From Escherichia coli (lineage in GTDB: Bacteria > Pseudomonadota > Gammaproteobacteria > Enterobacterales > Enterobacteriaceae), in assembly GCF_044647545.1 (NCBI RefSeq), contig NZ_CP172818.1: 64,000 bases of DNA. One strand, 5' to 3'. Below the pieces are notes generated by a model that had not been told where the DNA came from, did not search any database, and saw only the letters and a list, made by a program, of their open reading frames with translations. Positions 2,609 to 37,046 of this stretch are shown piece by piece. The position numbers were made by a program, and so were the translations under genes. The stretch's first letter is position 1. Each line of letters begins with the position of its first letter.

Positions 2609-3802
2609 TTAAGACTTGGACTGTTCAGGCTGAGCACCGCTTGCGGCTTGCTGGTTATTATCAGCGGTAACTTCTTGTGCTTTTACCTGGACACCAGGAC
2701 GCACTTTCTGCAGCCCACTTATTACTACGCGATCGCCTGCTTTCAGACCTTCTGTCACCAGCCACTTATCGCCGATAGCCTGGCTTGCAACGATCGGACG
2801 GGTTTCCACTTTGTCATCCGCGCCAACCACCAGTACGGTGGCATCGCCACGCGGCGTACGGGTTACGCCCTGTTGCGGGACTAAAATAGCGTTTGGATTA
2901 AGCCCTTCTTCCAGACGTGCACGTACGAACATACCCGGCAGCAGAGTGTGATCCGGGTTCGGGAAGATAGCGCGTAGGGTGATAGACCCGGTGGTCTGAT
3001 CAACGGTAACGTCAGAGAATTCCAGCGTACCGTCCTGCGGGAACTTAATGCCGTCACTGGTGATCAGCGACACTTTGGCTTTGCCGTTCTCTTGTTTCAG
3101 CGTGCCATTTGCCAGTTCCTGTTTCAGGCGCAGGAAGTCGTTGCTGGACTGGGTCACATCAACGTAGATCGGATCAAGTTGCTGCACGGTTGCCAGCGCA
3201 GTCGCCTGACCGTTCTGTACCAATGCGCCTTCTGTCACGTTCGACTTACCAATGCGACCGCTAATCGGAGAGGTGACTTTGGTGTAAGCCAGATTGATCC
3301 GCGCAGTTTCAACGGCAGCTTTCGCCGCAGTGACCGCAGCATTCGCCTGTTGCGCATCAGCCAGAGCCTGATCGTACTCTTGTTTACTGATGTACTGAGT
3401 ACCGAGCAGTTTCTGATAACGATTCACCGTCAATTGCGCGATATTTGCTGCAGCCTGGGCTTTCGCCAGATCACCTTTCGCACTGTCGTATGCCGCCTGA
3501 TAGGTCGCAGGATCAATCTGATAGAGAGAGACACCTGCTTCGATGTCGCTACCTTCTTTGAAATTACGCTTCAGGATAATCCCGCTAACTTGAGGACGAA
3601 CTTCTGCGATCCGGTAGGCACTGGTGCGACCCGGAAGCTCGGTTGTGATCTGCAGAGGTTCAGTTTTGACTGTTACTACGCCAACGGCGGGCATCTGCTG
3701 GCCACCTTGTTGGGCCTGTTTGTCGTCACATCCTGTTAGGGCTAAGCTGCCTGAGAGCATCAGAACGACCGCCAGAGGCGTAAACCCTCTGTTTTTGTTC
3801 AT
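2609..3802 (-). CDS. acrA: RND efflux periplasmic adaptor (membrane fusion lipoprotein) AcrA
   Basis: Track ORF 2609..3838 trimmed to internal ATG at 3802; MNKNRGFTPLAVVLMLSGSLALTGC lipoprotein signal and full-length match to AcrA as recalled; directly upstream of acrB. Confidence 0.95.
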   Translation of the reverse strand: MNKNRGFTPLAVVLMLSGSLALTGCDDKQAQQGGQQMPAVGVVTVKTEPLQITTELPGRTSAYRIAEVRPQVSGIILKRNFKEGSDIEAGVSLYQIDPATYQAAYDSAKGDLAKAQAAANIAQLTVNRYQKLLGTQYISKQEYDQALADAQQANAAVTAAKAAVETARINLAYTKVTSPISGRIGKSNVTEGALVQNGQATALATVQQLDPIYVDVTQSSNDFLRLKQELANGTLKQENGKAKVSLITSDGIKFPQDGTLEFSDVTVDQTTGSITLRAIFPNPDHTLLPGMFVRARLEEGLNPNAILVPQQGVTRTPRGDATVLVVGADDKVETRPIVASQAIGDKWLVTEGLKAGDRVVISGLQKVRPGVQVKAQEVTADNNQQAASGAQPEQSKS

Positions 3803-15958: not shown

Positions 15959-16921
15959 ATGCGTCAAACAAAAACCGGTATCCTGCTGGCAAACCTGGGT
16001 ACGCCCGATGCCCCCACACCTGAAGCGGTAAAACGCTATCTGAAACAATTTTTAAGCGACAGACGTGTGGTTGATACCTCACGGTTGTTATGGTGGCCAT
16101 TGCTGCGCGGCGTGATTTTGCCGCTGCGTTCGCCGCGTGTGGCGAAGCTGTATGCTTCTGTCTGGATGGAAGGTGGCTCGCCACTGATGGTTTACAGCCG
16201 CCAGCAACAGCAGGCGCTGGCGCAACGTTTACCGGAGACGCCCGTGGCGCTGGGAATGAGCTACGGCTCGCCATCACTGGAAAGCGCCGTAGATGAACTT
16301 CTGGCAGAGCATGTAGATCATATTGTGGTGCTGCCGCTTTATCCGCAATACTCCTGTTCAACGGTCGGTGCGGTATGGGATGAACTGGCACGCATTCTGG
16401 CGCGCAAACGTAGCATTCCGGGGATATCGTTTATTCGTGATTACGCCGATAACCACGATTATATTAATGCACTGGCGAACAGCGTACGTGCTTCTTTTGC
16501 CAAACATGGCGAACCGGATCTGCTGTTGCTCTCTTATCATGGCATTCCCCAGCGTTATGCAGATGAAGGCGATGATTACCCGCAACGTTGTCGCACAACG
16601 ACTCGCGAACTGGCTTCCGCACTGGGGATGGCACCGGAAAAAGTGATGATGACCTTTCAGTCGCGCTTTGGGCGGGAACCCTGGCTGATGCCTTATACCG
16701 ACGAAACGCTGAAAATGCTCGGAGAAAAAGGTGTAGGTCATATTCAGGTGATGTGCCCGGGCTTTGCTGCGGATTGTCTGGAGACGCTGGAAGAGATTGC
16801 CGAGCAAAACCGTGAGGTCTTCCTCGGTGCGGGCGGGAAAAAATACGAATATATTCCGGCACTTAATGCCACGCCGGAACATATTGAAATGATGGCTAAT
16901 CTTGTTGCCGCGTATCGCTAA
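15959..16921 (+). CDS. hemH: Ferrochelatase
   Basis: 320-aa [41 protein letters not shown]. Confidence 0.96.
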
Positions 16922-17877
16922 AGCTGAGCGGTAAAGAACTGAGCGCCGTCGCGAAGAGCCTCGTCGGCGGTTTTCATCATCCGTGAATAATGCAAAAAGG
17001 CGTGCAGCGTGCCTGGGTAGAGTTTGAACTCACAGGGCTGCTGATGCGCCGCTAACGTCTGGTAAAGCAGACGGCTGTCATCCAGCAGCGGATCGAACTC
17101 CGCCCCGGCAATAAAACAGGGCGGAACTTCGCGAGTGAGATCATTATTAAACAGGCAGTAATACGGCGACTCGCGGTCCGCGTCGTTGCTTAAATACGCC
17201 TCTTCATACATCTGTAAATCCTGTTGCGTTAAGCCATCCCAGACACCGCCCAACAGACGACGAGTCACGGAATCCCGTAATCCGTAAAGCCCATACCACA
17301 GCAAAACGCCCGCAACTTTACCGCAATCGATCTGTTTATCACGCAACCACAACGCACTGGCGAGCGCCAACATGGCACCTGCGGAATCACCGGCAAAGCC
17401 AATGCGGGACATATTGATTTGATAATCTTCCGCCTGCTGGTGGAAATAACAACAGGCAGCCACAATTTCCTCTATCGCTTGCGGAAAACACGCTTCAGGT
17501 GAAAGGGTGTAATCAATGCCAATCACCGTACATTGGCTGTAGCTTGCCAGCAGGCGCATGATGCGATCGTGGGTATCAAGATTGCCGAGAATAAAACCGC
17601 CGCCATGCAAATAAAATAGCGTCGCCGGGCTATCTGGCTGCGGACAAAAGAGACGTGTTTCCACCTGCCCATATTTTGTTGGAACCATGTAAGCTCTGGT
17701 TGCCATTTCTGGAGCGCCCGCATTCCAGAATCGGCGCTCAAGCGTGTAATGCTGTCGTTGCTCAGCAATCGTTCCCGTTGCGGGCCAGGGCGGTAAATCC
17801 GGCTGAAGAGTATTCACAACGGTCTTCATTTCAGCAGAAATAAGGTCCAGAACGGGTAATTTGTTTTCCGGCTTCAT
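16918..17877 (-). CDS. aes: Acetyl esterase Aes (alpha/beta hydrolase, HSL family)
   Basis: 319-aa ORF with HGGGF oxyanion motif and GDSAG nucleophile motif; 3' end overlaps hemH by 4 nt (convergent). Confidence 0.95.
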
Positions 17878-26759: not shown

Positions 26760-29264
26760 TTATTCCTTCGGTTTAAATCGCAGCAATCGGTTGGCGTTAC
26801 TCACTACGGTAATCGACGAGAGCGCCATTGCCGCTCCGGCAACCACCGGGTTAAGCAGCGTACCGGTGAACGGCCACAAAATACCGGCGGCGACCGGAAT
26901 ACCAATGCTGTTGTAGATAAACGCACCGAGCAGGTTCTGCTTCATATTGCGCAGCGTTGCGCGGGAAATCGCGAGCGCATCTGCAACACCCATCAGGCTA
27001 TGGCGCATCAGGGTAATCGCCGCGGTTTCAATGGCAACATCACTGCCGCCACCCATCGCAATACCGACATCCGCCTGAGCCAGCGCTGGCGCGTCGTTAA
27101 TGCCGTCGCCCACCATTGCCACCTGACGTCCTTCACTTTGCAGACGTTTGATCGCTTCGGCTTTACCGTCCGGTAGCACCCCGGCTATCACCTCATCAAT
27201 CCCTGCTTCTTTGGCGATCGCATTGGCGGTGGTTGGGTTATCCCCGGTTAGCATCACCAGACGATATCCCGCTTTATGCAGGCGTTGCAGCGCCGCCACG
27301 CTATCACTACGCAACGGATCGCGTACAGCCAGCAGGGCTACCGCTTTCCCGTCAACCGCCAGCAGCACAGGCGTTGCCCCTTGCGATGCCTGAGCTGAAA
27401 TATCTGCCTCAATCGCTTTAGTATCAACTTGCTGGTCATTTAACAGCGCCTGATTACCCAGCAATAACGCATGACCTTCAGCTTCACCGCTCACGCCCAG
27501 CCCGCGCAATGTGCGGAAACCGTTGACCTGCGGCAGCTGCATATCACCTGCTTTATCGAGGATCGCTCGTGCCAGCGGATGGCTGGAACCTTGCTCCAGT
27601 GCCGCCGCCAGACGCAATGCCTGCGCTTCATCAACATCAGCAAACGTTTTCACTGCGACAACCTGCGGCTTCCCTTCGGTCAGCGTCCCGGTTTTATCGA
27701 ACACGACGGTGTCGAGCGTACTGGCGCGTTGCAGCGCGTCAGCGTCCCGCACCAGCACGCCAAACTCAGCCGCCCGCCCGACGCCCGAAATAATCGACAT
27801 CGGCGTCGCCAGTCCCAGCGCACACGGACAGGCAATAATCAGCACCGTGGTGGCAATCACCAGGGTATAGACAATTTGCGGTGCCGGACCAAAGAAATAC
27901 CAGATTGCCGCACTGACAAGCGCAATAACCACTACTACCGGCACAAATACGGCTGAGATTTTATCCGCCAGTTGACCGATTTCTGGCTTGCTGCTCTGGG
28001 CCTGTCGCACCATGCGAATGATCCGTGACAGCGTAGTATGGCTGCCGACCGCACTGGCGCGAAACAGCACACTGCCGTCCTGTACCACTGTCCCGGCATG
28101 GACGCTATCGCCTTCGCCTTTTTGCTGCGGGATTGGTTCGCCCGTCAGCATCGCTTCATCCAGCCACGCTTCGCCCTGGGTAATTTCACCATCTACCGGC
28201 ACCCGATCACCCGTCGTCAGGCGCAGCAACATACCTGGCTGAACATCTGCCAGCGGCACGTTTTTTTCACCTTCGTTGGTGACCAGGCGCGCCGTCGGTG
28301 GGGTTAAATCGAGTAATTTCTCCAGCGCCTTAGAAGAACGCTGACGTGCGCGCGCTTCCAGCATATGACCGAGATTAATCAGACCGATAATCATCGCACT
28401 GGCTTCATAGTAAAGATGTCGCGCTTCCATCGGGAACCACTGCGGCCACAGGTTGACGCTCATTGAATAGAGCCACGCCACGCCCGTACCCAGCGCCACC
28501 AGCGTATCCATCGTCGCTGCACCGTTCAGCAGGCTTTTCCATGCGCTGCGGTAAAAATGGCCGCCGGCGAAAACCATTACCGCCAGGGTTATCAGGCCGA
28601 TAACCAACCACAGGCTGCGGTTGTCGGCGGTGACCATCATGTTATCGCCGATCATCCCCCAGACCATCACCGGGATACCCACCGCCAGTGCGACAATCGC
28701 CTGCCAGCGGAAGCGCTTCATCGTAGCGACGGCGGTTTCTTGCTGGCGCTCGCGGCGTTTAGCGTCATCTTCAATCGCTTCCGCGCCGTAGCCCGCTTTT
28801 TCCACCGCCTGCACTAAATCTTGTGGGGAGGCACTGCCCATCACCAGCGCAGTACGCTCCGCCAGGTTTACCCGTGCCTGAGTGACGCCCGGTACGCTTT
28901 GCAACGCATTTTGTACGCGGGTGACACAGCTGGCGCAGCTCATGCCGCTCAGCAGCAACTGCTGGCTGTCATCGTCATCGGCGGTCGCTGCCGGAAGCGC
29001 CTCAGAAACCGCTGTCAGTGCTTCCGACGGGATTGATGACTCCGCCAGCGGTTTAGCCTTTGGGTGGCTTACAGATGCGTCATAACCCGCTTGTTTGATG
29101 GTTTCGATCAGCTGTTCTGCACTGGCAGTCCCGGTAACGTGCGCTTCAGTGACAGACACATCCGCCTGCTCAACATCCGGGCGCTGTTCGAGACTTTCTT
29201 TCACGCGTTTAACGCAGTGACCGCAGGACAGGCCGTCCAGGGTCAGGTCGATAGTTTGTGACAT
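26760..29264 (-). CDS. copA: Cu(I)-exporting P1B-type ATPase CopA
   Basis: 834-aa ORF with two N-terminal GxxCxxC metal-binding domains (GLSCGHC, GMSCASC), CPC transmembrane motif and DKTGTLT phosphorylation site. Confidence 0.97.
29053..29064 (-). other. copA: copA programmed -1 frameshift site giving the CopA(Z) metallochaperone (slippery C CCA AAG, -1 frame GGC TAA)
   Basis: mRNA-sense CACCCAAAGGCTAAACCG at codons 67-72 of copA (plus-strand CTTTGGG at 29058..29064); -1 frame stop TAA lies immediately after the slip site. Confidence 0.75.
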
Positions 29265-29312
29265 AAAACACTCCTTTTAAGACAGTTTTGACTGGCTGTG
29301 ATAAAGGTTAAA

Positions 29313-29331
29313 CCTTCCAGCAAGGGGAAGG
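29313..29331 (-). promoter_or_regulatory. CueR (MerR-family) operator dyad within the copA promoter
   Basis: CCTTCC-N7-GGAAGG inverted repeat; on the copA strand it sits inside a 19-bp spacer following -35 TTGACC (reverse complement of 29331..29336), typical of MerR-type promoters. Confidence 0.85.
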
Positions 29332-29526
29332 TCAAGAAATTAATAAACCAGGCGGGTAAAAGTACGTAAAGATTAAAAAATCGGCTCGATTTGCATCAGG
29401 ATTAGACATTTATCTCTTTGTTTTCCTGTAGTTAAGTTGCGGGTGCTAAGTTAAATCAGGATGCCTGAAAATTGGCACCGGGGTGAGGAATTACCTCCCG
29501 CATCTATAAAAAGGAGTTAACAAAAG

Positions 29527-30459
29527 ATGTTAGATGCAAACAAATTACAGCAGGCAGTGGATCAGGCTTACACCCAATTTCACTCACTTAACGGCGGACA
29601 AAATGCCGACTACATTCCCTTTCTGGCGAATGTACCTGGTCAACTGGCAGCAGTGGCTATTGTGACCTGCGATGGCAACATCTATCGCGCGGGTGATAGT
29701 GATTACCGCTTTGCGCTGGAATCCATCTCGAAAGTCTGTACGTTAGCCCTTGCGTTAGAAGATGTCGGCCCGCAGGCGGTACAGGACAAAATTGGCGCTG
29801 ACCCGACCGGATTGCCCTTTAACTCAGTTATCGCCTTAGAGTTGCATGGCGGCAAACCGCTGTCGCCACTGGTAAATGCTGGCGCTATTGCCACCACCAG
29901 CCTGATTAACGCTGAAAATACTGAACAACGCTGGCAGCGAATTTTACATATCCAACAACAACTGGCTGGTGAGCAGGTAGCGCTCTCTGACGAAGTCAAC
30001 CAGTCGGAACAAACAACCAACTTCCATAACCGGGCCATTGCCTGGCTGCTGTACTCCGCCGGATATCTCTATTGTGATGCAATGGAAGCCTGTGACGTGT
30101 ACACCCGTCAGTGCTCCACGCTCATCAATACTGTTGAACTGGCAACGCTTGGCGCGACGCTGGCGGCGGGTGGTGTGAATCCGCTGACGCATAAACGCGT
30201 TCTTCAGGCCGACAACGTGCCGTACATTCTGGCTGAAATGATGATGGAAGGGCTGTATGGTCGCTCCGGTGACTGGGCGTATCGCGTTGGTTTACCGGGC
30301 AAAAGCGGTGTAGGTGGCGGTATTCTGGCGGTCGTCCCTGGCGTGATGGGAATTGCCGCGTTCTCACCACCGCTGGACGAAGAAGGCAACAGTGTTCGCG
30401 GTCAAAAAATGGTGGCATCGGTCGCTAATCAACTCGGCTATAACGTGTTTAAGGGCTGA
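29527..30459 (+). CDS. glsA: Glutaminase 1 (acid-resistance glutaminase YbaS)
   Basis: 310-aa ORF MLDANKLQQAVDQAYTQFHSLNGGQNADYIPFLANV. Confidence 0.95.
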   Translation: MLDANKLQQAVDQAYTQFHSLNGGQNADYIPFLANVPGQLAAVAIVTCDGNIYRAGDSDYRFALESISKVCTLALALEDVGPQAVQDKIGADPTGLPFNSVIALELHGGKPLSPLVNAGAIATTSLINAENTEQRWQRILHIQQQLAGEQVALSDEVNQSEQTTNFHNRAIAWLLYSAGYLYCDAMEACDVYTRQCSTLINTVELATLGATLAAGGVNPLTHKRVLQADNVPYILAEMMMEGLYGRSGDWAYRVGLPGKSGVGGGILAVVPGVMGIAAFSPPLDEEGNSVRGQKMVASVANQLGYNVFKG

Positions 30460-30461
30460 TC

Positions 30462-31754
30462 ATGATGAACACGGAAGGTAATAACGATAACAAACCCCTC
30501 GGTCTATGGAACGTCGTTTCCATCGGTATTGGGGCAATGGTGGGGGCGGGGATCTTCGCGCTGCTGGGGCAGGCTGCGTTGCTAATGGAAGCCTCGACCT
30601 GGGTCGCCTTTGCTTTTGGCGGTATTGTGGCGATGTTTTCCGGTTATGCCTATGCGCGCCTGGGGGCGAGCTATCCCAGCAATGGCGGTATTATCGACTT
30701 CTTTCGTCGCGGATTAGGCAACGGCGTCTTTTCGCTGGCACTCTCGTTATTGTACCTGTTGACGCTGGCGGTGAGCATCGCCATGGTCGCCCGTGCTTTT
30801 GGCGCTTATGCCGTGCAGTTTTTGCATGAAGGCAGTCAGGAGGAGCACCTTATATTGCTCTACGCGTTGGGGATCATTGCGGTGATGACGCTTTTCAACT
30901 CCTTAAGCAACCATGCGGTAGGGCGGCTGGAAGTGATCCTCGTCGGCATTAAAATGATGATCCTGTTATTGCTGATCATTGCCGGTGTCTGGTCGCTGCA
31001 ACCGGCGCATATTTCCGTCTCTGCGCCCCCCAGCTCCGGTGCGTTCTTCTCCTGTATCGGGATAACCTTCCTTGCCTATGCGGGCTTTGGCATGATGGCG
31101 AACGCGGCGGATAAAGTGAAAGATCCGCAGGTCATTATGCCACGGGCGTTTCTGGTGGCGATTGGCGTTACCACGTTGCTTTATATCTCGCTGGCGCTGG
31201 TTTTGCTTAGCGATGTATCGGCATTAGAGTTAGAAAAATATGCCGATACCGCCGTAGCGCAGGCAGCTTCTCCGCTGCTCGGGCATGTGGGTTATGTGAT
31301 CGTCGTCATCGGCGCTTTACTGGCGACGGCTTCAGCCATCAACGCGAACCTGTTCGCCGTGTTTAACATCATGGACAACATGGGCAGCGAACGCGAACTG
31401 CCGAAGCTAATGAATAAATCCCTGTGGCGGCAGAGTACCTGGGGCAACATCATTGTCGTGGTGCTGATTATGCTGATGACGGCGGCGCTGAATTTAGGCT
31501 CACTCGCCAGCGTTGCCAGCACCACCTTTTTGATCTGCTATCTGGCGGTGTTTGTGGTGGCGATCCGCCTACGTCATGATATTCACGCCTCGTTGCCGAT
31601 TCTTATCGTTGGTACGTTGGTGATGTTGTTGGTGATCGTTGGCTTTATCTACAGCCTGTGGTCCCAGGGCAGCCGTGCGTTGATATGGATTATTGGTGCA
31701 ATCTTACTCAGCCTTATTGTGGCAATGGTCATGAAGCGCAATAAAACCGTATAA
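30462..31754 (+). CDS. ybaT: APC-family amino acid transporter YbaT
   Basis: 430-aa polytopic ORF starting 2 nt after the glsA stop (operon). Confidence 0.93.
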   Translation: MMNTEGNNDNKPLGLWNVVSIGIGAMVGAGIFALLGQAALLMEASTWVAFAFGGIVAMFSGYAYARLGASYPSNGGIIDFFRRGLGNGVFSLALSLLYLLTLAVSIAMVARAFGAYAVQFLHEGSQEEHLILLYALGIIAVMTLFNSLSNHAVGRLEVILVGIKMMILLLLIIAGVWSLQPAHISVSAPPSSGAFFSCIGITFLAYAGFGMMANAADKVKDPQVIMPRAFLVAIGVTTLLYISLALVLLSDVSALELEKYADTAVAQAASPLLGHVGYVIVVIGALLATASAINANLFAVFNIMDNMGSERELPKLMNKSLWRQSTWGNIIVVVLIMLMTAALNLGSLASVASTTFLICYLAVFVVAIRLRHDIHASLPILIVGTLVMLLVIVGFIYSLWSQGSRALIWIIGAILLSLIVAMVMKRNKTV

Positions 31755-31878
31755 CATCTCTCTGTGCGCAGTACTTCCTGTATTATTGTGGTGGCGGTCG
31801 ATATTCGCACTGGCAAAAAAACGTGCTTGAATATTTGTTGAAACCCTTTAACAAAGCACAGGAGGCGTTGCGCGAACG

Positions 31879-32286
31879 ATGAACATTAGCGATGTAGCAA
31901 AAATTACCGGCCTGACCAGCAAAGCCATTCGCTTCTATGAAGAGAAGGGGCTGGTGACGCCGCCGATGCGCAGCGAAAACGGTTATCGCACCTACACGCA
32001 GCAGCATCTCAACGAACTGACCTTACTGCGCCAGGCACGCCAGGTGGGCTTTAACCTGGAGGAGAGCGGCGAACTGGTGAATCTGTTTAACGATCCGCAG
32101 CGTCATAGTGCCGACGTCAAACGTCGTACGCTGGAGAAGGTGGCGGAGATCGAACGGCATATCGAAGAACTGCAATCCATGCGCAACCAGCTACTGGCGC
32201 TGGCGAATGCCTGCCCTGGCGATGACAGCGCCGACTGCCCGATTATCGAAAATCTCTCCGGCTGCTGTCATCATCGGGCGGGGTGA
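31879..32286 (+). CDS. cueR: Cu-responsive MerR-family activator CueR
   Basis: 135-aa [42 protein letters not shown] with C-terminal [10 protein letters not shown] metal site. Confidence 0.96.
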
Positions 32287-32756
32287 TTAAAAGAAAAAAA
32301 GGCGATGACCGCACGGATAATCAGCGTTATCCCTTCTATCGCAATCACCTCAACATGCGTACCTGCACTGAGATCCTCGCTGGCGCTGACAGGCCATGAA
32401 CTGTCACCGACGCGCATATGACCACGCCCGTTGACCAGCGGAGATTCCAGAACAAAACGTCGGCCAATCAACTGCTGCCCGCGCTGGTTTAAATGACTGT
32501 CGCTGTGCTTTTGTTCGCGCACCCGCCGCGACAACCATTTCCACCACAGCCAGGCGGCGAGCAGCGTCAGGACGGCAAACATTACCCCTTGCCACTCCCA
32601 ACCCAGCGGCAGCAACCAGACCACCAGACCGGTAATCACCGCTGCCACGCCGCTCCACAACAGATAACCATTGCCGCCCAACATCTCGGCTGCCAGCAGC
32701 AAACCGCCGAGACTTAGCCAGAAAATATGTGGATGAACGACCATTAACTCCATCAT
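32271..32756 (-). CDS. ybbJ: NfeD-like inner membrane protein YbbJ (partner of QmcA)
   Basis: 161-aa ORF; start ATG overlaps the qmcA stop (ATGA); 3' end overlaps the cueR 3' end by 16 nt. Exact start not verified. Confidence 0.85.
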
Positions 32757-33670
32757 GGCTGAGTCCGTTTGTTGGCGCTGTCTTTCACCAGCTCGGCAAT
32801 CCCGGCAATCGACCCCATCAGGCTGCTGGCCTCTAATGGCATCATCACTACTTTGCTGTTACTGGACGAACCGATCTGCTGTAACGCTTCGGTGTATTTC
32901 TGTGCGACGAAGTAGTTCACCGCCTGAATATCACCGGAGGCAATGGCTTCAGATACCATTTTGGTGGCGCGGGCTTCTGCTTCGGCAGAACGTTCACGCG
33001 CTTCGGCCTGTAAGAATGCCGATTGACGTTCACCTTCCGCTTTCAGGATTTGCGACTGTTTTTCACCTTCAGCTTTGAGGATTTCCGCCTGACGGATCCC
33101 TTCCGCTTCAAGGATGTAAGCGCGTTTGGTACGTTCCGCTTTCATCTGCGCGTTCATTGAAGAGATAAGCTCTGCCGGTGGGCGCACGTCGCGAATTTCA
33201 ATACGGGTGACTTTAATCCCCCACGGGTTGGTGGCTTCATCGACAATACGCAGCAGGCGTGAGTTGATGCTGTCGCGCTGAGAGAGCATTTCGTCAAGTT
33301 CCATTGAACCCAGCACGGTACGGATGTTAGTCATGGTCAGGTTGATGATCGCCAGCTCCAGATTGCTGACTTCATAAGCCGCGCGCGGCGCGTCAATCAC
33401 CTGAATAAAGCACACGGCGTCGATGGTAACGTTGGCGTTATCTTTCGAGATAACTTCCTGGGAAGGGATATCGAGCACTTGCTCCATCATATTGATCTTG
33501 CGACCAATGCGATCCATAAACGGCACCACCAGACTGAGCCCCGGCTGTAACGTTTTGGTATAGCGACCAAAACGTTCTACTGTCCACTGATAGCCCTGCG
33601 GCACGATTTTGACGCCCGCGCCGACAATGACCAGCGCGACAAAAATGAGAATCGGGATAAAGATAAGCAT
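32753..33670 (-). CDS. qmcA: SPFH/stomatin-family membrane protein QmcA (YbbK)
   Basis: 305-aa [40 protein letters not shown]. Confidence 0.95.
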
Positions 33671-33815
33671 CGGAAAAACCTCCTGTTGTACCGTCCATAA
33701 TCAGCAAAATTGCTGCTTGATTAAACAAATTATACCTGATTACTGAAAGAGAGTTCCCCCTTATTCCTGCGAAGGATAAACTGTTTTTAGTAAAAATCAG
33801 AAAAAGGGAACAGTG

Positions 33816-34493
33816 ATGCAGGAAAATAGTCCTTTGCTTCAGCTACAAAACGTAGGATATCTGGCGGGTGATGCGAAGATTCTTAATAACATCAATTTTT
33901 CGCTGCGTGCTGGCGAATTTAAGTTAATTACCGGTCCTTCTGGTTGTGGCAAAAGTACGCTGCTAAAAATAGTTGCTTCATTGATCAGCCCAACCAGCGG
34001 AACGTTACTGTTTGAAGGTGAGGATGTCAGCACACTAAAGCCAGAAATCTACCGCCAGCAAGTCTCTTATTGCGCCCAGACGCCGACGCTGTTTGGCGAC
34101 ACGGTATACGATAATCTGATCTTTCCTTGGCAGATCCGTAACCAGCAGCCTGACCCAGCCATTTTTCTCGATTTTCTCGAACGCTTCGCCTTACCGGACA
34201 CCATTTTGACGAAGAATATCGCCGAGCTATCTGGTGGGGAAAAACAACGCATCTCATTGATTCGTAACCTGCAATTTATGCCGAAGGTTTTATTGCTGGA
34301 TGAAATAACCAGTGCGCTGGACGAAAGTAATAAACATAACGTTAATGAGATGATCCACCGTTATGTGCGCGAGCAAAATATTGCCGTGCTGTGGGTGACA
34401 CACGATAAAGACGAAATTAATCATGCGGATAAAGTGATTACACTGCAACCGCATGCCGGAGAAATGCAGGAAGCACGCTATGAACTCGCATAA
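33816..34493 (+). CDS. fetA: ABC transporter ATP-binding protein FetA (YbbL), iron export
   Basis: Track ORF 33813 (GTG) trimmed to ATG at 33816; Walker A GPSGCGKST and signature LSGGEKQR. Confidence 0.93.
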   Translation: MQENSPLLQLQNVGYLAGDAKILNNINFSLRAGEFKLITGPSGCGKSTLLKIVASLISPTSGTLLFEGEDVSTLKPEIYRQQVSYCAQTPTLFGDTVYDNLIFPWQIRNQQPDPAIFLDFLERFALPDTILTKNIAELSGGEKQRISLIRNLQFMPKVLLLDEITSALDESNKHNVNEMIHRYVREQNIAVLWVTHDKDEINHADKVITLQPHAGEMQEARYELA

Positions 34494-35259
34494 TATTACT
34501 AACGAATCATTAGCACTGGCATTGATGCTGGTGGTGGTGGCAATCTTAATTAGCCATAAAGAAAAACTGGCGCTGGAGAAAGATATTCTCTGGAGCGTCG
34601 GGCGCGCGATAATCCAGCTGATTATTGTCGGCTATGTGCTGAAGTATATTTTCAGCGTGGATGATGCCAGCCTGACATTATTGATGGTGTTATTTATCTG
34701 CTTTAATGCGGCGTGGAATGCGCAAAAACGCAGTAAATATATTGCTAAAGCTTTTATCTCATCGTTTATTGCCATTACGGTCGGGGCGGGAATTACCCTG
34801 GCGGTGCTGATTCTCTCAGGGTCGATTGAATTTATCCCGATGCAGGTGATCCCTATCGCCGGGATGATAGCCGGTAACGCCATGGTAGCGGTGGGGTTGT
34901 GTTACAACAATTTAGGGCAACGGGTGATTAGCGAACAGCAACAGATTCAGGAGAAACTGAGTCTTGGCGCGACGCCGAAACAGGCTTCAGCGATATTGAT
35001 TCGCGACAGTATTCGCGCTGCTTTAATTCCGACGGTCGATTCAGCAAAAACGGTAGGCTTAGTGAGTTTACCAGGAATGATGTCCGGGCTGATATTTGCC
35101 GGGATTGATCCGGTGAAGGCGATTAAATATCAGATTATGGTGACCTTTATGCTGCTCTCAACCGCCAGCCTGTCGACCATTATTGCCTGCTATTTAACCT
35201 ATCGTAAGTTTTACAATTCGCGCCACCAGTTGGTGGTGACGCAATTGAAGAAGAAATGA
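34480..35259 (+). CDS. fetB: ABC transporter permease FetB (YbbM)
   Basis: Track ORF 34453..35259 trimmed to ATG at 34480 (MNSHNITNESLALALMLVVVAIL); overlaps fetA 3' end by 14 nt. Confidence 0.9.
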   Translation: MNSHNITNESLALALMLVVVAILISHKEKLALEKDILWSVGRAIIQLIIVGYVLKYIFSVDDASLTLLMVLFICFNAAWNAQKRSKYIAKAFISSFIAITVGAGITLAVLILSGSIEFIPMQVIPIAGMIAGNAMVAVGLCYNNLGQRVISEQQQIQEKLSLGATPKQASAILIRDSIRAALIPTVDSAKTVGLVSLPGMMSGLIFAGIDPVKAIKYQIMVTFMLLSTASLSTIIACYLTYRKFYNSRHQLVVTQLKKK

Positions 35260-35265
35260 TGCAAT

Positions 35266-35291
35266 GCCGGATGCGCAGCATCGCATCCGGC
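35266..35291. repeat. REP-like palindromic hairpin between fetB and cnoX
   Basis: GCCGGATGCG-CAGCAT-CGCATCCGGC, perfect 10-bp stem. Confidence 0.7.
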
Positions 35292-35321
35292 GTTGTGGTT
35301 CATGTGCCGATCAACGGAAAC

Positions 35322-36218
<897 letters not shown>

Positions 36219-36236
36219 TTAAGCGCGCGCTTCAAC

Positions 36237-37046
36237 TCACCCCTGCAATATTTTGTCCATCACGCGCCCCGGCAGCAGGCGCTTAAGCACCATTACTGCC
36301 CAGGTCACCAGCGTTACCGGATAGCGCATCTTCGGCTTCTCGCTAATAAAAGCATGGCGCACTTTGTCGACCACCGCTTCCGGTCCTAACGTAAAGCGGG
36401 CGGCGATGCCGGGATTTTCGACTGGTTTATCACTTTGCGTCTGGTTGACGTTGTCGGTGAAGCGAGTACGAATGGGACCAGGTTCGATCAGGCTGACTTT
36501 AATTCCGCTGTGGCGCAGCTCCATGCGCAGTGCGTCTGACCACGCCTCCAGCGCATATTTACTGGCCGCGTAAGCGCCACGACCCGGTGTGGAGATTAAT
36601 CCCATCACCGATGAGGTCATCACAATACGCCCTTCACCGTGCGGCAACATCGCGGGTAACAGGCGCATGGTGAGCTGGTGTGCGCCGAAAAAGTTGGCGG
36701 AAAACTGCTGTTCCATCTGCGCACGGCTGATGGTGGAAAGGGGGCCATACATGCCGAATCCGGCATTGTTAAAGATCCCATACAGACAATTATCGGTCAG
36801 GGCGATCACTTCGTCGGCTGCGCGATCAACACATTCTGGCGAATCCAGATCGATCAACACGCCGGTAAATCCCATGCTGTTCATGCGCTCAACATCATCC
36901 GCTTTCCGGCAACCTGCCAGCACATGAAAACCCTGGCGTTTTAATTCGAGCGCGCTTTCCAGGCCAATTCCACTGGAACATCCGGTAATTAAGACCGATT
37001 TTTGCATAACTTTACCTGTCAGGATCTCCGTTGCTTTATGAGTCAT
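36237..37046 (-). CDS. ybbO: Short-chain dehydrogenase/reductase YbbO
   Basis: 269-aa ORF with TGCSSGIG Rossmann motif and YAASK catalytic motif. Confidence 0.93.
   Translation of the reverse strand: MTHKATEILTGKVMQKSVLITGCSSGIGLESALELKRQGFHVLAGCRKADDVERMNSMGFTGVLIDLDSPECVDRAADEVIALTDNCLYGIFNNAGFGMYGPLSTISRAQMEQQFSANFFGAHQLTMRLLPAMLPHGEGRIVMTSSVMGLISTPGRGAYAASKYALEAWSDALRMELRHSGIKVSLIEPGPIRTRFTDNVNQTQSDKPVENPGIAARFTLGPEAVVDKVRHAFISEKPKMRYPVTLVTWAVMVLKRLLPGRVMDKILQG

Follow-up and report, generated by a model that had tools for sequence, protein, structure and literature searches.

Where convergent genes in bacteria overlap, the usual form is four nucleotides, the two stop codons being shared tail-to-tail as YTAR. 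For Escherichia coli MG1655, the ExcludonFinder article (PMC12288877) describes 165 convergent excludons, among them cueR-ybbJ and hemH-aes, each of which is stated there to appear in half or more of 58 RNA-seq data sets. As a class, excludon pairs are described in that article as having higher synteny and less single-cell co-expression; the validation it presents is at class level, and p19 capture of double-stranded RNA is said not to be feasible for convergent pairs. Two Rho termination regions reported for K-12 bear on the same genes (Adams et al. 2021, PMC7815308 Supplementary file 2): one at 514,988 (+), antisense to qmcA, where the reads upstream and downstream are 61 and 5 when untreated and 68 and 86 with bicyclomycin (Rho score 15.4, p = 2.7e-12), and one with a Rho score of 4.07 that lies on the aes antisense strand at 499,332 (+). 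Wang et al. (bioRxiv 10.1101/2022.10.23.513370) describe bidirectional intrinsic terminators and the programmed head-on collision of RNA polymerases, a mechanism that depends on a stem-loop lying between the two genes, and REP elements lie between 207 of 704 convergent E. coli gene pairs (bioRxiv 10.64898/2026.03.23.713779).

We have examined the junction of cueR and ybbJ in a window of E. coli DNA, that is, the whole 64,000-nucleotide stretch analysed (contig NZ_CP172818.1), where the coding ends of the two genes overlap by 16 bp. The evidence set out below makes it quite probable that this overlap is a recent, strain-private deletion scar at a naturally terminator-free junction, and that the 3' ends of the transcripts form beyond the junction.

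Coding ends of cueR and ybbJ in the window

The features at the junction are as follows.

31879..32286, + strand: cueR CDS, 135 aa, Cu(I)-responsive MerR-family regulator (ORF list; stop TGA at 32284-32286)
32271..32756, - strand: ybbJ CDS, 161 aa, NfeD-family membrane protein (ORF list; stop TGA at 32273-32271)
32753..33670, - strand: qmcA CDS, 305 aa, SPFH/PHB domain, upstream partner in the qmcA-ybbJ operon (ORF list; RefSeq annotation of relatives)
32271..32286, both strands: convergent coding overlap of cueR and ybbJ, 16 bp (ORF list and sequence)
32271..32300, - strand: private C-terminal extension of YbbJ, nine codons (FFSFNHPAR) and stop (frame reading, allele comparison, Pfam)
32287..32300, both strands: junction filler or scar, 14 nt, TTAAAAGAAAAAAA (border comparison with IMT16316; alignment with K-12 and SK1144)
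about 31785-31882 (equivalent of locus L001 1486-1583), + strand: 98-nt RefSeq pseudogene (RefSeq annotation of other E. coli genomes)

The original prediction, that cueR and ybbJ share 16 bp of coding sequence, was confirmed: the ORFs occupy 31879-32286 (+) and 32271-32756 (-), and 32271-32286 belongs to both. Pfam domains and the existence of Enterobacteriaceae orthologues establish that these are two real genes, on opposite strands, with shared 3' coding ends. CueR matches MerR_1, MerR-DNA-bind and MerR, all above the Pfam thresholds, and the window cueR is 99.3% identical to the K-12 CueR locus; the NfeD domain, likewise above threshold, covers residues 94-148 of the 161-aa YbbJ. The shared segment holds the final four sense codons and stop of cueR (..H R A G *) and, on the other strand, the final four codons of the YbbJ extension with its stop (..H P A R *), and the adjoining scar, read on the - strand, supplies further codons of the private tail (..F F S F N..). 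At its other end, the start of ybbJ overlaps the qmcA stop by 4 nt (32753-32756), a typical operon arrangement.

A check of the ybbJ stop against reference annotation, which had been proposed as a way to refute the overlap, gives a different answer for each reference. In K-12, cueR lies at 513,993-514,400 and ybbJ at 514,401-514,859, so that the stops abut as TGA|TTA with neither gap nor overlap (0 nt), and YbbJ is a protein of 152 aa with the C-terminus ..HIRAVSS. The 161-aa protein of the window is exactly RefSeq WP_400165134.1, 'NfeD family protein [Escherichia coli]', and the annotation of the source genome therefore includes the overlap.

Two further annotations lie close by. A sigma-70-like site on the - strand (32271..32242: ATGACA, an 18-nt spacer and GATAAT; 10/12 matches) begins exactly at the overlap, points antisense into cueR and is the sole such site in 2.5 kb, a count below the 1.9 expected by shuffling and so not significant. 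In many E. coli genomes, RefSeq places a 98-nt pseudogene, 'hypothetical protein, frameshifted, missing N-terminus', across the cueR start; this feature of the ybaT-cueR spacer is probably an annotation artefact.

Distribution and origin of the 16-bp overlap

The K-12-type junction is found in about 3,199 of 5,426 complete E. coli genomes, and about 2,200 of them have DNA inserted between cueR and ybbJ. A 91-nt probe for the window junction matched none of the 5,426, the best full-length match being 80%, and with A6 to A9 allowed in the probe there were no matches in 241 million metagenome records. YbbJ is 161 aa in the window and 152 aa in nearly all E. coli, and nearly all of the members listed for its cluster of 1,423 are of the latter length. 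Cluster lookup in a collection of about 15 billion proteins placed the exact 161-aa protein on a single contig; an exact-product lookup in the contig index returned no matches. That contig is 4,499,902 bp long, the relatives with identical flanks being 4.9 to 5.3 Mb, and the source strain may have lost many islands.

For a family-wide view, ybbJ loci were taken from 80 species-representative genomes and the stops were located by following each reading frame. Of the 80 loci, 55 have cueR convergent with ybbJ and less than 2.5 kb away, and in 50 of these 55 Enterobacteriaceae species with an adjacent pair the stop-to-stop spacing falls between -47 and +5 nt, as follows.

-4 nt: 35 species (TTAA, CTAA, TTAG and CTAG all seen)
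0 nt: 6 species
+3 nt: 6 species
+5 nt: 1 species
-9 nt: 1 species (Salmonella enterica subsp. arizonae)
-47 nt: 1 species (Enterobacter mori)

The four-nucleotide shared-stop overlap (YTAR) is thus the commonest form in the family (35/55 species), and by this comparison of genomes a lack of room for a terminator at cueR/ybbJ is the norm of the Enterobacteriaceae. Longer read-through overlaps have arisen independently at least twice elsewhere, in Enterobacter mori (L030, 47 nt) and Salmonella enterica subsp. arizonae (L082, 9 nt), where the junctions lie at about 2950-3000 of the respective loci and the YbbJ tails bear no relation to that of the window. Because these tails arose independently and are unrelated to the one described here, they suggest that C-terminal extensions of YbbJ are tolerated. 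As a conserved property of the pair, the 16-bp overlap failed the test: none of the other genomes searched has it, the spacing in K-12 is 0 nt, and the family values are -4, 0 and +3. The overlap reading is accordingly correct for the window genome, and does not hold as a general feature of cueR and ybbJ.

The near-zero spacing might be taken as a selected design, in which the overlap is kept as a means of mutual repression between cueR and qmcA-ybbJ, by polymerase collision or by RNase III cleavage of the RNA duplex; if true, copper sensing and membrane-protein quality control would thereby be coupled. The spacing is indeed kept in 50/55 species while the stops themselves vary between TTAA, CTAA, TTAG and CTAG, and the pair is on the K-12 excludon list, with the class-level trends in synteny and co-expression reported in that article. 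On the other hand, about 40% of complete E. coli genomes tolerate inserts of 0.8 to 2.6 kb at this junction, the 16-bp form is a singleton, and shared ancestry alone would suffice to retain the spacing. A literature search found no evidence for mutual repression, or other expression data, specific to cueR/ybbJ; it took in the text of the excludon article (PMC12288877). Mutual repression as a selected design is on this evidence quite unlikely, and the fuller version, in which the spacing would be a selected antisense switch coupling CueR levels to the QmcA/YbbJ membrane-protein quality-control module, with islands and scar as natural rewiring variants, is very unlikely.

The closest relatives point instead to the loss of an island. 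E. coli IMT16316, ECONIH1, 1428, ST648 and others match both 4-kb flanks of the junction (28287-32286 and 32301-36300) with 100.0% identity. Among the matches listed for both flanks, the two are 2,562 bp apart in IMT16316, 1428, ECONIH1, WP5-S18-ESBL-08, WP4-S18-ESBL-09 and 201609, and every genome with identical flanks among those listed carries a 2,558-bp island, which in IMT16316 encodes a hypothetical protein, a YadA-family autotransporter adhesin, a protein that carries the name lipoprotein in O157, and a further, small hypothetical protein. A REP element adjoins ybbJ in IMT16316, where the gene ends ..IIRAVIA and then TGA, this TGA being the start of the REP consensus (GCC TGA TGCGACGC..). 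The REP likewise supplies the ybbJ stop in E. albertii, E. whittamii and other Escherichia (L002 2810-2830; L006-L010 about 2950-2962; L088 about 672-680), so that in Escherichia of other than K-12 type a mobile repeat sets the C-terminus (..AVIA) of the conserved protein YbbJ.

The window ybbJ allele is that of the island-bearing relatives (..IIRAVIA). Starting from the base after the cueR TGA, 2,561 bp, comprising the 2,558-bp island and the ybbJ TGA, are replaced by the 14 nt of the scar, and the REP palindrome (GCCKGATGCGRCG...), which is present in relatives L002, L006-L010 and L088, is absent from the window junction (32271-32300). With the island and its TGA gone, the ybbJ frame stays open for nine more codons, FFSFNHPAR, until it meets a TGA that lies 16 nt inside cueR. 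The expected read-through after loss of a stop is about 21 codons, so that nine are unremarkable and the length of the overlap is within chance expectation. Placed past the parental ..IIRAVIA end, where it does not touch the NfeD domain, the extension is most probably neutral.

The source of the filler is less simple. A search of the closest relatives' 2,558-bp island for the 14 nt did not find them. In the SK1144-type insert, which is unrelated to that island, TTAA directly follows the cueR stop and AGAAAAAAAG stands 77 nt later; the shuffle frequency of this match was 0.0016 in a post hoc test. These matches would be compatible with one deletion plus filler, or with two deletions in another ancestor. 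The SK1144-type insert derives from a 409-aa ORF, which is intact in E. albertii (L009 3056-4285, between ybbJ and cueR) and survives as a frameshifted remnant in SK1144 (L002 1988-2666). In E. albertii the TAA of this ORF abuts the cueR TGA in the same TGA|TTA arrangement as ybbJ and cueR in K-12, and a Pfam search with the ORF gave no family.

Within E. coli, the cueR/ybbJ junction is a hot spot for insertions. The ST648-like genomes carry the 2.56-kb island with the YadA-family adhesin (IMT16316, L088 675-3232), and O157:H7 a larger island with the same kind of genes (L003 2542-4997). E. coli CUVET19-1426 (L004 1363-1537) shows a further rearrangement, in which 150 bp covering the 3' end of cueR and the junction are duplicated; the annotation calls the copy a partial 'heavy metal-responsive transcriptional regulator' pseudogene.

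The length of the overlap rests on a seven-base run in the junction (A7 on the + strand, T7 on the - strand). By computation, T8 on the - strand would make ybbJ stop at a TAA abutting the cueR TGA, with a product of 157 aa and no overlap, and T6 would give an overlap of 43 nt. A miscounted homopolymer, the true run being T8 and ybbJ ending as in K-12, is the less likely alternative to a private deletion scar, and we regard it as unlikely. One added base would indeed restore a stop at the K-12 position; the junction is known from a single assembly, as is the 161-aa protein; and the run belongs to the class of sequence that is the most indel-prone in long-read assemblies. There is, however, no direct sign of error, and the assembly would seem to be well polished, because both 4-kb flanks match several independent genomes at 100%. 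Even if the run length were wrong, the deletion and the terminator-less junction would stand.

Termination at the cueR/ybbJ and hemH/aes junctions

The following features bear on the 3' ends of the cueR and qmcA-ybbJ transcripts.

32287..32342, - strand: compound hairpin in the last ybbJ codons (32342..32301, -11.3 kcal/mol), then U7CU4 (fold and shuffle control)
32451..32750, + strand: C-rich, G-poor tract antisense to ybbJ, candidate Rho loading (rut) region (skew computation)
32845..32925, centre 32885, + strand: equivalent of K-12 Rho region 514,988, measured in K-12 and placed here by coordinate mapping (PMC7815308)

The claim that there is no room for a terminator between the two genes held up. 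A consensus terminator scan of 32100-32750 gave none; folds of both strands at the junction gave hairpins without a following U-tract; an inverted-repeat search at the junction found no convincing terminator; and an Rfam search of 31000-34000 returned only a chance miRNA match (E = 0.57). The junction thus failed the test for an intrinsic or bidirectional terminator.

It is conceivable that the scar itself created a new intrinsic terminator for qmcA-ybbJ, formed by the hairpin at 32342..32301 with U7CU4 one base later. The fold of -11.3 kcal/mol has a 7-bp basal stem followed by C and then U7, and alignment with K-12 and SK1144 shows the U-tract to be present in this genome only. Its stability is, however, like that of shuffled sequence (z = -0.82), 39 of 200 shuffles folding at least as well, and it was rejected on this control. 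The hairpin is moreover 41 nt long with large internal loops and was missed by the consensus scan; its position within the translated part of ybbJ, 27 nt short of the stop, would expose it to unfolding by ribosomes; and once the U-tract is included the preferred fold pairs the U's with an upstream AGAAGG. A terminator made by the scar is therefore extremely unlikely. A weak terminator-like site on the - strand in the 5' coding part of cueR (31922..31904; 8 pairs, 3 of them G-C, U5, z = -1.9) was set aside as inseparable from coding constraint.

The mechanism of 3' end formation had been called unclear from the sequence. For the cueR side this no longer applies, given the Rho data for K-12 (PMC7815308); for the ybbJ side the statement stands. 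The Rho region at 514,988 (+) is 588 nt beyond the cueR stop in K-12, and its equivalent is 599 nt beyond it in the window; all the transcript data come from K-12, the junction of which differs from that of the window by 11 nt and the ybbJ tail. Immediately upstream of the equivalent position, and downstream of the cueR stop where the RNA is untranslated, lies the tract at 32451-32750 (+), with 36% C and 21% G. Its skew, (C-G)/(C+G) = 0.26, ranks at the 99.4th percentile when every 300-nt window of the 64 kb is taken on either strand, and a C-over-G skew is likewise found downstream of cueR in K-12. In composition the tract resembles what is expected of a Rho loading site, being C-rich and G-poor over at least about 80 nt, and it may serve as one. 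Transcripts that start elsewhere than at the cueR promoter could account for part of the terminated reads at 514,988 (+).

The data of PMC7815308 assign neither a curated Term-seq 3' end nor a Rho region on the - strand to cueR, ybbJ, qmcA or ybaT. Most likely, termination of qmcA-ybbJ transcription is diffuse or Rho-dependent, in the antisense of cueR or ybaT, where the C-over-G skew is only moderate.

A second junction in the window offers a parallel.

15959..16921, + strand: hemH CDS, 320 aa (ORF list; K-12 comparison)
16918..17877, - strand: aes CDS, 319 aa (ORF list; K-12 comparison)
17200..17270, centre 17236, + strand: equivalent of K-12 Rho region 499,332 (+) (PMC7815308 and coordinate mapping)

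A 4-bp convergent overlap of hemH and aes at 16918-16921 had also been noted, and the ORF list bears it out: the shared letters are CTAA, giving TAA on the + strand and TAG on the - strand, and the overlap in K-12 is identical. The Rho region at 499,332, position 17236 of the window, is 315 nt past the hemH stop. A further Rho termination region in the same data, K-12 498,060 (about 15964 of the window, +; score 4.0), lies 5 nt inside the hemH start, where the adk 3' region ends. The 49 kb of K-12 that match most of the window contain nine convergent junctions, of which two, cueR/ybbJ and hemH/aes, have a spacing of zero or less; a third, chiX/ybaP, overlaps by 2 nt and is outside this count because chiX is a small RNA gene.

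Overall interpretation and comparison with known systems

The interpretation that we propose is as follows. In the Enterobacteriaceae, cueR and qmcA-ybbJ converge with almost no spacer, the stops typically forming a YTAR motif or abutting. In the closest relatives, a 2.56-kb island occupies the insertion hot spot, with a REP at its edge supplying the ybbJ TGA; and in the present genome, as comparison with those relatives suggests, island and TGA were lost together and 14 nt were left in their place. Deprived of a stop of its own, ybbJ is read on through FFSFNHPAR to the in-frame stop within cueR. On the cueR side, ribosomes would leave at the TGA and the RNA would continue, untranslated, as ybbJ antisense through the C-rich tract, to be terminated by Rho about 0.6 kb downstream in the antisense of qmcA, as measured in K-12 and presumed here. 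On the other side, the qmcA-ybbJ transcript would run antisense into cueR, with a Rho-dependent or diffuse end being most likely. With both 3' ends beyond the junction, the two transcription units would therefore overlap as a convergent excludon, which is what has been reported for K-12. The same logic would apply to hemH/aes.

Much of this is already documented: the terminator-less design, the transcript overlap, catalogued for K-12 at both junctions, and the Rho dependence of the cueR side make this an ordinary case. For E. coli, Rho acting in the antisense of the neighbouring gene is documented, genome-wide and for both of these pairs, as the way in which convergent junctions without a terminator are resolved. 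The case illustrates that a stop codon supplied by the edge of a mobile REP or island can vanish with the island, leaving a longer protein and an overlap that only seems designed. At strain level there remain the private nine-residue YbbJ tail, the missing island with its YadA-family adhesin, and the possible homopolymer error; beyond annotation, the overlap matters little.

Set against the known systems, hemH/aes (CTAA) is a direct example of the YTAR overlap, and cueR/ybbJ is one in 35/55 species, whereas in the window cueR/ybbJ overlaps by 16 bp, through loss of a stop codon, and the stops are not shared. Most Escherichia of other than K-12 type have a REP directly after ybbJ, as in the REP/BIME 3'UTR regulators (bioRxiv 10.64898/2026.03.23.713779), while the window has lost its REP. 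With the programmed collision of Wang et al. (bioRxiv 10.1101/2022.10.23.513370) the junction shares convergent units in which polymerases can meet, but the stem-loop required there is absent at cueR/ybbJ. Shared with the MG1655 excludons described in PMC12288877 are the same two pairs, the same orientation and no intergenic terminator, the transcripts of each side having been measured in K-12 to run into the neighbour. The K-12 coding ends of cueR and ybbJ, however, abut (0 nt), whereas those in the window overlap by 16 bp through the private YbbJ extension. A further known system is that of the Rho regions of Adams et al. (PMC7815308), where Term-seq curated no precise 3' end for the cueR-ybbJ and hemH-aes genes. 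Common to these regions and to the present junctions are untranslated RNA after the stop and a tract with C in excess of G; bicyclomycin-sensitive read-through about 0.3 to 0.6 kb downstream has been measured in K-12 only, and the K-12 regions concerned, 514,988 and 499,332, correspond to positions 32885 and 17236 of the window.
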